A DNA stretch of 64,000 nucleotides from an uncultured Solirubrobacterales bacterium. Its GTDB lineage: Bacteria > Actinomycetota > Thermoleophilia > Solirubrobacterales > Solirubrobacteraceae. Below are positions 60,992 to 64,000 of this stretch, one piece after another. The notes beneath the pieces were generated by a model. That model worked only from the letters and a program-made list of their open reading frames with translations. It was not told where the DNA came from and did no database searches. Numbering within the stretch: the first letter of the stretch is position 1; every line of letters starts with the position of its first letter. The stretch is from the NCBI GenBank assembly GCA_963748895.1, contig CAVVKF010000001.1:480983-544982 (forward strand), written 5' to 3'. Made by a program: the position numbers and the translations under genes.

Positions 60992-61478
60992 TCACTCGCG
61001 GGTCAGCGGCTCTGTGTTGCCGGCGAGGGCATCGGCGAGGCCCTCGCGCGCGCCGTCCTGCGCGAGCTCACGTTGGTCGGCGGCGGCGGCAAGCAGCGAC
61101 TGCCAGCGCTTCTCGCTGCCGGCCGTCTCGCGGAGTCGCTCTAGATCGCGCCGCAGATCGACGACGCTTCCGAAGGCTAAAGTCATCGGCTGCTCTCTTA
61201 CGACATCGATCAATTCGCGTTGGGCCCAGGCCCGAACCGTCGGCTTTGAGACACCAAGCGCGGTGGCCGCCTGGGTGAGGTCTATCTCAGCAGGGCGCAT
61301 CGCGGCCGCTATCTGGTGCCCGGGCACGCCGGCGCTCATAGACATCGCCCAGTCCACGACCGAGCGCGTCCCCGCGATCTTCCTCGGATGGGCGTGAGGA
61401 GTAGGCCTCCCATACGATCTCCGCCTCAGGCTCGGTGAGGGAGAGGAGGATCTCCTGCAAACGCTCCTTACTCGTCAT
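60992..61478 (-). CDS. HTH DNA-binding protein (excisionase/MerR-like HTH); probably one gene split by an indel near 61380
   Basis: IDLTQAATALGVSKPTVRAWAQRELI. Confidence 0.55.
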
Positions 61479-61799
61479 GCTCATGACGCTGCCGAGAGAG
61501 GTTCGCGAACAGCCGGTGGCCTGTCTGGTTCGATCCATGCAGACAACTGTACGCCGAGCTTGCGACGGCTCGCTCGATCGGCACGGGCACAGTAAGACCT
61601 CAGCACAGCTTTGCGCGGCTGTCACCGGCATCTTGCGCATTTATTGGGTCGCCCTCCAAGTTAGGCCAACCCTCACTGACATTACAACGCTCTGGAAAGC
61701 CTACCGGCAGAGGGAATGCTGAGCGCGAGGCGTAACTGATATGGGCAACGTTTGTCAAGTTGGGCAGGGGTAGAGGGAGCCTGGTGGGTGTCGGGCTCC

Positions 61800-62025
61800 G
61801 TCCTTTTTGGGCTGTGGTTCGAGATGCGGGTGGCGGCCGGAGCTGCGAGGGCAGTCATGCTGATATGCGAGGGCTGGGTACCTCAAGGCGGTTCTTCGCT
61901 GCGCCTGGGCCGCAGTCTATAAACGAAACGAGCGCCCCAACGGTGGTTGGTGCTCATAGCTACGTCGCGGGTCCGTGTGACGCGGCGCCGGCCGCCACCC
62001 CCATACCGAACGGGATGTGTGGTGC
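61800..62025 (-). ncRNA. Putative bridge/seek RNA of the IS110 element; boundaries approximate
   Basis: Internal segments match the element ends (CTGATATG 61860-61867 = 61736-61743) and the flank (AGCTACG 61958-61964 vs AGTTACG). Confidence 0.55.
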
Positions 62026-62029
62026 GGGT

Positions 62030-63121
62030 TCAGTCGGGTTGCTGGGCGACCTCCCAGACGAAGCACGCGAGCTCGCGAGCGACCGCGACAGCGACAGTGG
62101 CGCGCTTCTTCGCGCATGCCGCGTCGAGGTGCGTCCAGCGGCGGTGCAGCCGGATCTGTGCACGCCACGCGGTCTCGATCGCGGCGGTCGGCTGGTCTTT
62201 CTGGCGGCGCTTGAGCGTGAGCGACACGCCGGGCGCTCGTCGGTAGTTCCAGGCCGCCTCGACGAGCAGCCTGCGGGCGTGACTGGAGCCGACCTTGGTG
62301 ATCGATCCCTGCCGGCGTTTGGCGCCGCTGGAATGCTCGGATGGGACCAAGCCGAGGTAGCTTGAGAGCTGCTTGGGGTGCGAGAACGCGCTGATGTCAC
62401 CGATCTCGCAGACCAGGCCGACCGCGGTGAGCGTCTCGATGCCACGCAGGCACCGCAGCCGCGCGACCTGTGGTGCCCACGGGCCTTGGATGGACTGCTC
62501 GAGGATCAGCCCGTCCAGCCTCTCACGCCGTGCGAGCAGCACCTCGTGGTGAGCGAGGTACTCGCCGAAGAGGACCTGCTGCAGCGGCTGCTGGAAGCGA
62601 ACCTTGCTCAGCCAGTGCAGGTGATGTTCTGCCCATGTCTCACCGGGTCCGGTCCAGAGGATGCCTTGGCGCAGCAGCAGCTTGCTGATGCGGTGGCGCG
62701 CTCTCATCAGATCGCCGCGGAGATCCTCACGGGCACGCACCAAGTCGCGCAGTGCCTCGAGCTCGCGCGCGGGCACCACGACCGCACGCAGCTGCCCGGC
62801 CGCGTGCAGCCTGGCGAGCTTGAGCGCGTCGCGCGTGTCGGTCTTGATTCGGTCTCCGGGTTGACGCGGGATCGCGCCCGGCGCGCAGACCATCAGCTCA
62901 ACGCCAACCGCCTTGGCGCTCCGCGCGAGCTCGAACCCGGTCGGCCCGGCCTCGTAGACCGCGCGCACCTGTCCCGGAAGCGACTGCAGCCACTCGATCG
63001 CGGCGGCCGAAGACCCTGGCAATTGTGCCTTCCAGACCTTATCCGAGCCCAACTGCACAGCCGCGGCCGCGGTCTTCCGGGCATGCACATCAAGGCCAGC
63101 AAAATAGATACCTTCAGACAT
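62030..63121 (-). CDS. IS110-family transposase/recombinase (DEDD RuvC-like + Tnp domain)
   Basis: AGLDVHA, YEAGPTG, KTDTRDA, GI...TA..L..EIGD...F, YLGLVPSEHSSG, AVARELA. Confidence 0.95.
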   Translation of the reverse strand: MSEGIYFAGLDVHARKTAAAAVQLGSDKVWKAQLPGSSAAAIEWLQSLPGQVRAVYEAGPTGFELARSAKAVGVELMVCAPGAIPRQPGDRIKTDTRDALKLARLHAAGQLRAVVVPARELEALRDLVRAREDLRGDLMRARHRISKLLLRQGILWTGPGETWAEHHLHWLSKVRFQQPLQQVLFGEYLAHHEVLLARRERLDGLILEQSIQGPWAPQVARLRCLRGIETLTAVGLVCEIGDISAFSHPKQLSSYLGLVPSEHSSGAKRRQGSITKVGSSHARRLLVEAAWNYRRAPGVSLTLKRRQKDQPTAAIETAWRAQIRLHRRWTHLDAACAKKRATVAVAVARELACFVWEVAQQPD

Positions 63122-63391
63122 GTCGACGTTCCCCTTAGCCATTGATGCGGTACCCATCCAGGGTCATGACTTCAACGGTAGACGAACACACGTTCGCCTC
63201 CAAGGGGGTCCCGGGCAGAAGTCGCAAAGCTGGCACATTTGCCCCCGTGTTTCCGGGGGAAGCGGGCGGGCGGGGGGCGAGCGGGCACTAAACCTGGCGC
63301 GAAAACGTCCAAGCCATCGAGGAATGCCGACCGATTTCAAAGGGCCAGAACGGCCTTCGCATCCGTACGAGGACGCAGCAGCCGGTCGATA

Positions 63392-63426
63392 TCTAAAGAT
63401 CTCTAAAAGTTCTAAAAATCTCTAAA
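63392..63426. repeat. Four TCTAAA direct repeats in an AT-rich intergenic tract
   Basis: Copies at 63392, 63402, 63411 and 63421. Confidence 0.6.
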
Positions 63427-63586
63427 GGAGCCTGTCTCATCCGCATGATTCAAAATAGACAAAACCAATCAATCCAAAAACCAAATGCCGGCAAGCCAAC
63501 AAACAAACGTGAGGCCATTCCCAGCTATACCCCAGCTCCCTCATCGAATCCGCAGCCCAGCCTAACCCGCGAGGCCTGGCCTCTCG

Positions 63587-64000
63587 CTACGCCGCCACCG
63601 CCCGCACGTCGCGCCTATAGCAGATCAACTCGAGCACGTCCTGGGAGCAGGAGACTGGGTGGGCCCCGTCGTACAGCAGCCTGAACAACCAGTTGCCTCC
63701 GGGGTCGGTGACGCGCCCGGGTACGACGGCGACCTCTGCGCCGAGGTCGGCGGCGATCTGCGCGGTGAATAGCCCGCAGGAGCGTTCTCCGACCTCGACG
63801 ACGATGATCAGGCCGGAGAGCGCGGCCATGATGCGCTGGCTGGCTATGAAGCACCAGCGCTCGGGATCGGAGTATCCGGGTGGGAGCTCTGACACGGCGG
63901 CGCCTTGGGCGAGGATGCCTCGGTGCAGGTCCTGGAGCCGTCTGGGGTAGGGGATCTCGGGGCCGGTGGACATCACGGCAATGCTGTTTGCGCTGGCGTG
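63587..64000 (-). CDS. DprA/Smf (SLOG) family protein, divergent; 5' truncated by window edge
   Basis: SE.PPG....F....RI.AALS...IVVE....S..L.TA..A..LG.EV.VVPG.V.DP......L..DGA. Confidence 0.7.
   Translation of the reverse strand, partial: HASANSIAVMSTGPEIPYPRRLQDLHRGILAQGAAVSELPPGYSDPERWCFIASQRIMAALSGLIIVVEVGERSCGLFTAQIAADLGAEVAVVPGRVTDPGGNWLFRLLYDGAHPVSCSQDVLELICYRRDVRAVAA

Follow-up and report, generated by a model that had tools for sequence, protein, structure and literature searches.

Insertion sequences (ISs) of the IS1111 group, among them ISEc11, ISKpn4 and ISPa11, carry the sequence of a seekRNA or bridge RNA downstream of the recombinase gene (Siddiquee et al. 2024, PMC11187229; Durrant et al. 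2024, PMC11208160). They are laid out with a short left end, a long right end and subterminal inverted repeats (PMC11208160), and GL-P----S(T)G is the C-terminal motif of IS1111-type recombinases (PMC11187229). The same IS110 family also includes recombinases that work for the host, the Piv/MooV-type invertases (PMC11187229). The locus described here lies in a stretch of 64,000 nucleotides (the window, meaning the whole stretch analysed) from an uncultured Solirubrobacterales bacterium (Actinomycetota), whose metagenome-assembled genome (G000) comprises 2.2 Mb in 3 contigs and is rated 65% complete. It consists of an IS1111-group recombinase gene with its guide RNA; the left end of the element is missing, and in its place is a promoter with a predicted LexA box. 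The element family is a known type; the left-end-less, LexA-box-driven, conserved form is new. We read the locus as a stranded recombinase–bridge RNA pair that would be immobilised, is vertically inherited and selectively maintained, and is probably under SOS control, and we put the probability of this reading at roughly 0.62.

Recombinase, guide RNA and guide matches

Relatives were sought in 300 genomes from the same genus, in one GTDB-wide scan and in one scan of metagenomes. This search for other copies, suggested in an earlier note made from the letters of the window, returned two groups of close relatives, one full-length and one left-end-less. Group A (n = 10: G107a, G093, G103, G005, G230, G044, G203, G123, L155 and L156) shows 79–85% nucleotide identity, and its members are all full-length and have unrelated flanks. 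Group B is made up of the window copy, G043, G253, L046 (G317), L047 (G318) and the metagenome contigs L151–L154 and L157. Every copy in Group B is without the left end, and the proteins are 91–93% identical to that of the window, or 85% in the case of the error-rich contig L157. The left-end-less form was found as a single copy in at least five sister Solirubrobacterales species.

The recombinase gene, its RNA, the element ends and the promoter module of the window are all on the minus strand. The gene (62030..63121) encodes 363 amino acids; the longest frame extends over 62030–63157, and the ATG at 63121 was taken as the start conserved among relatives (12 copies). Pfam searches identified an N-terminal DEDD RuvC-like domain, PF01548, and a C-terminal PF02371 domain with the Ser-Gly pair (E values of 1.4e-14 and 1.5e-21, respectively), and the model NF033542, "IS110 family RNA-guided transposase", scored 217.7 bits (cut-off, 140). 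D11, E57, D95 and D98 were invariant when the protein was aligned with 24 homologues (38–54% identity), as was G266 of the stretch GLVPSEHSSG (residues 257–266), in which S265 adjoins it. The assignment made in the earlier note, an IS110-family recombinase with intact DEDD and catalytic-Ser motifs, was confirmed by these domain matches and invariant residues. Like members of the IS1111 group, the locus thus has a DEDD recombinase with GL-P----SG, an RNA downstream of the gene and an outward-facing −35 element; it differs from them in host and in the length of the protein, for which 330–350 amino acids are quoted as typical. A phmmer search against the PDB gave no match between the recombinase and solved structures. 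Within the 2.2-Mb assembly the recombinase locus is single-copy.

The stop codon is separated from the right end by 294 nt, in keeping with the ~290 bp of non-coding DNA noted earlier, and this long region carries the guide RNA, as expected for the IS1111 group. In the 198 nt 3′ of the stop codon, a closing stem of 13–15 bp (62002–61988 paired with 61840–61828) holds two internal loops, each capped by a hairpin, one for target binding and one for donor binding. Folding and a covariance model built from 13 copies (R1) delimit an RNA core of ~175 nt (61828..62002). When applied to 73 more distant loci, R1 recovered the RNA in 66, each time directly downstream of the recombinase gene; these loci come from Actinomycetota, Proteobacteria, Acidobacteriota, Myxococcota and Planctomycetota. 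In the R1 alignment 87.8% of cells were paired, compared with 35–42% when the partners were slid, and compensatory changes were present in 48 of 54 pairs; these figures lean towards structure, because the alignment was fitted to the model. A search of Rfam over 61000–64000 gave no family at E ≤ 1. Fold and covariation therefore bear out the readable downstream bridge/seek RNA of the earlier note. The bridge RNA of IS621 (IS110 group) likewise has two internal loops, one guide per DNA strand and the core in all four guides. Unlike in IS621, the RNA is located 3′ of the gene in the right end rather than 5′ in the left end, the element family has long subterminal repeats, and the core is AG, whereas that of IS621 is CT.

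Guide function was assessed by matching the loops to insertion junctions. The 5′ guide of the target loop, CGTAGCT (61958..61964), is the reverse complement of the core AG plus a right flank CTACG. In general form this strand reads NNNN-GCT, and its GCT together with the 3′ variable bases is the reverse complement of AG-C-NNN in the right flank. At 10 insertion junctions from related elements, in 9 genomic contexts, 25 of 30 variable positions matched the flank, as against 9.7 after shuffling (p < 1e-5). The flank in the window, AG-TTACG, leaves one G-T wobble against the guide, just as had been noted from the letters, and that of L046, AG-CTACG, is perfect; covariation thus supports CGTAGCT as the right-flank guide. 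The 3′ guide of the target loop, TCGTTTAT-AG-AC (61915..61926), corresponds in sense to the left target flank, followed by the core and the two nucleotides with which the left end opens. For full-length copies, agreement between NN-T-AG-AC and the left junction was weak (11 of 18, against 7.2; p = 0.04), and among left-end-less copies this guide is the most variable part of the RNA, with both substitutions and indels. A programmed target of about (T)TCGT(T/C)TAT-AG-CTACG, close to the one proposed beforehand, is near what the guides encode, and its right half, AG-CTACG, is found unaltered in L046. As a separate observation, the metagenome contig Ga0136614_10048325 (L156) carries the same element as L155 with identical guides, and its right flank, AG-ACCTGG, mismatches the guide; it is a candidate for an off-target insertion or a later rearrangement.

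In the donor loop, the 5′ guide is ACCGCCT (61886..61892). Full-length copies have ACCGTCT at this position, which is the reverse complement of the left end AGACgGT. The 3′ guide, CATATCAG (61860..61867), is identical to the right end plus core and is invariant in 12 of 13 aligned copies, with an A-to-G change in G005; the identity between 61867–61860 and 61743–61736 pointed out in the earlier note therefore holds and marks the donor guide for the right end. As the donor guides are nearly invariant, donor pairing rests on sequence matches and not on covariation. Either AG or its complement is present in all four guides, and hence the core is AG, as had been proposed. The two target guides address both target strands and overlap at the core, and the other two match the donor ends; as in IS1111 seekRNAs, the guide complementary to the top strand lies 5′ of the one complementary to the bottom strand, with overlap at the core dinucleotide.

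Element ends and the promoter in place of the left end

The right end (61736..61746) consists of the subterminal inverted repeat GCCCATA (61746–61740), TC and the core AG (61737–61736), and homology to all relatives stops there. Group A elements and the sister copies all finish with ...CCCATATCAG and then diverge. This end is identical across all copies, and 61736, where the earlier note had put it, coincides exactly with the terminus of eight independent full-length relatives and all sister copies; in G023 and G007, too, homology breaks exactly at the right end. The outward-facing −35 element TTGACA reported 17 nt inside the end was located at 61758–61753 (61753..61758), and a circle formed by full-length relatives would yield a junction promoter TTGACA-N17-CAGTAT. 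Beyond the core lies the right target flank TTACG (61731..61735), which belongs to a flank, TTACGCCTCGCGC, common to all left-end-less copies and reading TTACGCC(T/C)CGCGC across Group B.

In Group A, where the left side is available, the left end reads (C/T)T-AG-ACAG-TATGGG(C/G). It takes the form (C/T)T-AG-ACAGTATGGGC in eight full-length copies; its start is AGACAGT in eight full-length copies and AGACGGT in L155. GCCCATA of the right end recurs here in inverted form as TATGGGC, and ~113 nt of element precede the start codon. Full-length relatives thus resemble the IS1111 group in that their non-coding left end is short and their right end long, with subterminal repeats. Homology of the window to these relatives begins only at 63167, equivalent to nt ~68 in full-length elements by a count on L024 1434–1500, so the first ~67 nt, including the core and the left subterminal repeat, are gone. 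The IS-derived 5′ leader that remains (63122..63167; homologous to nt ~68–113) carries the ribosome-binding site AAGGGGA. Subterminal inverted repeats of at least 7 bp are accordingly present at both ends in the full-length family and not in the window copy, and no left repeat or left end beyond chance was found elsewhere in G000.

Because its left end is missing, the window copy should, by the known mechanism, be unable to excise or to transpose as an autonomous IS. No excision or circle joints were seen in reads on four metagenome DNA runs, where contigs can miss rare forms. Independent metagenome contigs from peat (2016) and soil (2024) span both junctions with 2–4 differences and none skips the element, so the arrangement is not an assembly artefact. 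No tRNA genes were found near the insertion. A 15-mer, AG-ACAGTATGGGCG, identical to the core plus the full-length left end, is present at G000:C2:397681-397698; it was considered as a partner site and rejected. The 15-mer adjoins a Fic/DOC gene and is also conserved in G043; G253 and G318 lack it, a reversed-pattern control gives as many matches, and the Fic gene beside it and the one next to L047 are not orthologues.

Where the IS left end would be, the window has a promoter module, X, of ~140 nt (63168..63307), which is conserved in G043, L046, L047 and L151–L154; G253 has a deletion from the dprA stop codon instead. The module comprises a hairpin (63259–63242), a −35 element TTGGAG (63203–63198) and a −10 element TACCGT (63180–63175). 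Between the two hexamers lies a perfect LexA box, CGAACGTGTGTTCG (63196..63183), identified by comparison. The motif CGAAC-N4-GTTCG is perfectly conserved in all left-end-less copies that still carry X. When 230 loci were screened for a box 35–70 nt 5′ of the recombinase start, it was found only in Group B and in no full-length or distant copy. In G000 the motif occurs 11 times against 2.3 expected, with one occurrence ~44 nt upstream of a match to the lexA DNA-binding domain; owing to this enrichment and to its place upstream of lexA, it was read as the LexA box of the host. A predicted LexA box of host type thus lies inside the promoter, and DNA damage would most likely derepress transcription of the recombinase gene and probably that of the co-oriented RNA. 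A simple sigma-70 scan did not call the X promoter, and the promoter reading rests on comparison. Integron integrases are LexA-controlled recombinases of mobile elements, and in them, as here, a LexA box overlaps the recombinase promoter; they differ in belonging to another enzyme family, and in the present case the promoter appears to have been gained by replacement of the element's own end.

At 63179..63186 the module contains the 8-mer TTCGTCTA, which is also the left-target guide of the sister copies. The Group B left-target guide, TTTCGTCTAT-AG, shares TTCGTCTA with X at an estimated chance of ~0.004 and with no covariation, which is only suggestive, and the 8-mer could be what is left of the original left target flank. 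Positions 63178–63168 may stem either from the promoter module or from the IS.

X modules also precede unrelated sequences, without any IS, in six other places in the genus: L014 2379–2752 and 3674–4047 (G007:C9), G043:C9:253216, G304:C139:15479, G315:C12:267566, G253:C3:1395494 and G295:C3:423171. At these sites the box lies between a −35-like element and a TAnnnT hexamer, and an ATG follows the hexamer after 6–8 nt. In G007, two non-coding units of ~375 nt, each headed by the module, stand in tandem at a distance of 1295 bp, with small genes interleaved; at the other sites the module precedes short open reading frames (ORFs). No hidden remnant of a recombinase was detected at the second X-promoter copy in G043 (G043b).

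Inheritance, selection and competing explanations

The intact ancestral element, of ~1.49 kb and seen in sister genomes, should work like the known bridge/seek-RNA elements. Its DEDD/Ser recombinase would load the RNA encoded 3′ of its own gene, the target loop would pair with both strands of NN-T-AG-C-NNN and the donor loop with the joined ends CATATC-AG-ACAGT, and the circle would be inserted by recombination at the AG core. The ancestor of the stranded locus probably inserted into an X-type promoter. A deletion would then have taken out the core together with ~65 nt of the left end, the subterminal repeat among them, and so have put the gene behind the LexA-box promoter. The locus has since been passed down vertically in a Solirubrobacterales clade, with gene and RNA under purifying selection.

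In five species the recombinase ORF is intact at 363 amino acids. Pairwise dS for the Group B recombinase (0.12–0.19) is similar to that of adjacent host genes (sigma factor, 0.12–0.17; helix-turn-helix (HTH), 0.23; dprA, 0.20–0.22), and in most of Group B the HTH and sigma-factor genes lie downstream. The dN/dS values of Group B were between 0.15 and 0.31, with p values for ω < 1 of 7e-6 to 3e-12 for each pair, and the RNA core showed 0.02–0.056 substitutions per site, 3–8 times below synonymous sites. Purifying selection on both gene and RNA implies that the pair is still used, in a role that has no need of the left junction. As for the changes that have accumulated, every one of the 10 Group A copies has an intact TTGACA, against only 2 of ~9 Group B copies, the AG of the left-target guide has been lost in G043 and G253, and the donor 5′ guide has undergone a T-to-C change in the left-end-less lineage. 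Group B shows no variation in the right-flank guide, in CATATCAG, in the flank TTACG or in the final 10 nt of the right end. This distribution is suggestive of erosion of features that serve transposition only, while those of the right junction stay fixed. In lacking the left end and its repeat, in its LexA-box promoter, in being single-copy and in its vertical inheritance under selection, the window copy is unlike the IS1111 group.

Several observations weigh against a stranded and maintained pair. The dN/dS of Group B is about twice that of the full-length copies (0.08–0.15 in Group A), which means relaxed constraint. On the upstream side the copies have different neighbours (dprA, a PBP-domain gene or a Fic gene) and L047 differs downstream too, after ~35 nt, which indicates that some movement or rearrangement of the unit has occurred. 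The X promoter is weak by the E. coli sigma-70 consensus, and a look-up of RNA sequencing runs returned none containing the locus. No clean empty site, which the earlier note had also proposed to look for, was found among relatives of the window copy, relatives of the G005 copy or at the HTH locus of G011, and the history of left-end loss is consequently reconstructed and not observed. Finally, scans of G000 for the target and the donor junction gave only chance-level matches, with at least 2 mismatches, and identified no substrate for a present-day reaction.

Some of these points would suit a plain decaying relic, functionless after a recent loss of the left end and with its disabling mutations yet to come. 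Such a relic would be expected to lack its left end, to be single-copy, to let its outward −35 and left-junction guides drift and to show a dN/dS above that of mobile relatives, all of which is seen. Yet the loss is common to at least five species at dS 0.12–0.19 and every ORF is still intact; with dN/dS no higher than 0.31 (p ≤ 7e-6 for every pair) and an RNA 3–8 times more conserved than synonymous sites, we consider mere decay unlikely. A unit that is still mobile, either moving as a whole from the X module to ~35 nt past the right end or acting in trans on matching ends, would explain the three upstream contexts and the one different downstream context among sister copies, and purifying selection is what an active element would show. 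This possibility is, in our view, quite improbable, given that there is one copy per genome, that nearly all copies share the downstream HTH/sigma locus and that dS equals that of host genes; in addition, the left border of the unit has neither a terminal nor a subterminal repeat, no other left or right ends beyond chance were found in G000, and the four metagenomes yielded no joints.

The version of the earlier note, an intact autonomous IS at 63199–61736 inserted off-target, is refuted by the comparative data, and we assign it next to no weight. It drew on AGGCG (63199–63195) as the left end and on its complementarity to CGCCT in the RNA. The position given for CGCCT (61890–61886) is correct, and it forms the 5′ strand of the donor loop, but its match to AGGCG is fortuitous; full-length copies have CGTCT, complementary to their real left end AGAC(A/G)GT. 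AGGCG itself is not an element end: it overlaps the left edge of the LexA box inside the promoter and is unconserved in sister copies, homology to the element starts only at 63167, and the left end of the relatives lies elsewhere, with a subterminal repeat that is absent here. An insertion bounded at 63199, and with it the off-target event, is therefore not supported; the locus has no left end, exists as a single copy and offers neither an empty site nor circle joints.

Within the reading of a stranded and maintained pair, a more far-reaching proposal is that the recombinase has been domesticated as a DNA-damage-induced, RNA-guided system, a host-level exaptation, which we put forward as a tentative and, overall, rather doubtful possibility. 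The −10 region in other promoters of the X type is similar to the programmed site TTCGTCTAT-AG-CTACG, and a domesticated pair could act on these SOS promoters or on the retained right junction. It would share with the Piv/MooV-type invertases the keeping of an IS110-family recombinase at a fixed chromosomal place without transposition (PMC11187229). In contrast to those systems, this locus has also kept its guide RNA, in conserved form; neither an invertible segment nor a second site was found, and the function is putative.

Other features were observed around the locus and elsewhere in the genome. The C-terminal part of dprA (window 63587–64000) is near-neutral between sister species, with dN/dS of 0.7–0.9 compared with ~0.2 for the recombinase. 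An AT-rich segment (63440–63586), absent from the orthologous spacer of G043, looks like a repeat of the miniature inverted-repeat transposable element type; at least six diverged copies (68–80% identity) lie at other places on contig C1 of this genome. Immediately downstream of the element, a motif of ~50 nt (..GTTGTCTGCATGGATCGAACCAGACAG..; 61530–61580) was not called as a tRNA by ARAGORN, and three further diverged copies are present in G000 and one in G007. G000 also contains two full-length RecA matches (G000:C2:217566-218351 and G000:C3:13986-14774; 435 and 418 bits), which may be true paralogues or may point to a mixed bin.

Meaning for bridge-RNA recombinases

To our knowledge, bridge/seek-RNA recombinases are known only in selfish insertion sequences and in engineered tools. 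For relatives of TnpB and IscB, exaptation has already been seen. A recombinase that probably no longer jumps and is kept intact together with its RNA across related soil bacteria, behind a putative DNA-damage promoter, has the signature expected of exaptation, and if this is true it would be the first exapted bridge/seek-RNA recombinase. Group B may also be viewed as a natural dissection of the RNA, in which the guides for the lost junction drift and the scaffold and the guides for the retained junction are fixed. With regard to a programmable tool, for which the earlier note had suggested the window copy, intact donors are offered by full-length relatives from other genomes and not by this copy; these relatives are ordinary yet usable new IS1111-type systems from Actinomycetota with clear AG-core guides, and R1 recovers the RNA in several phyla.

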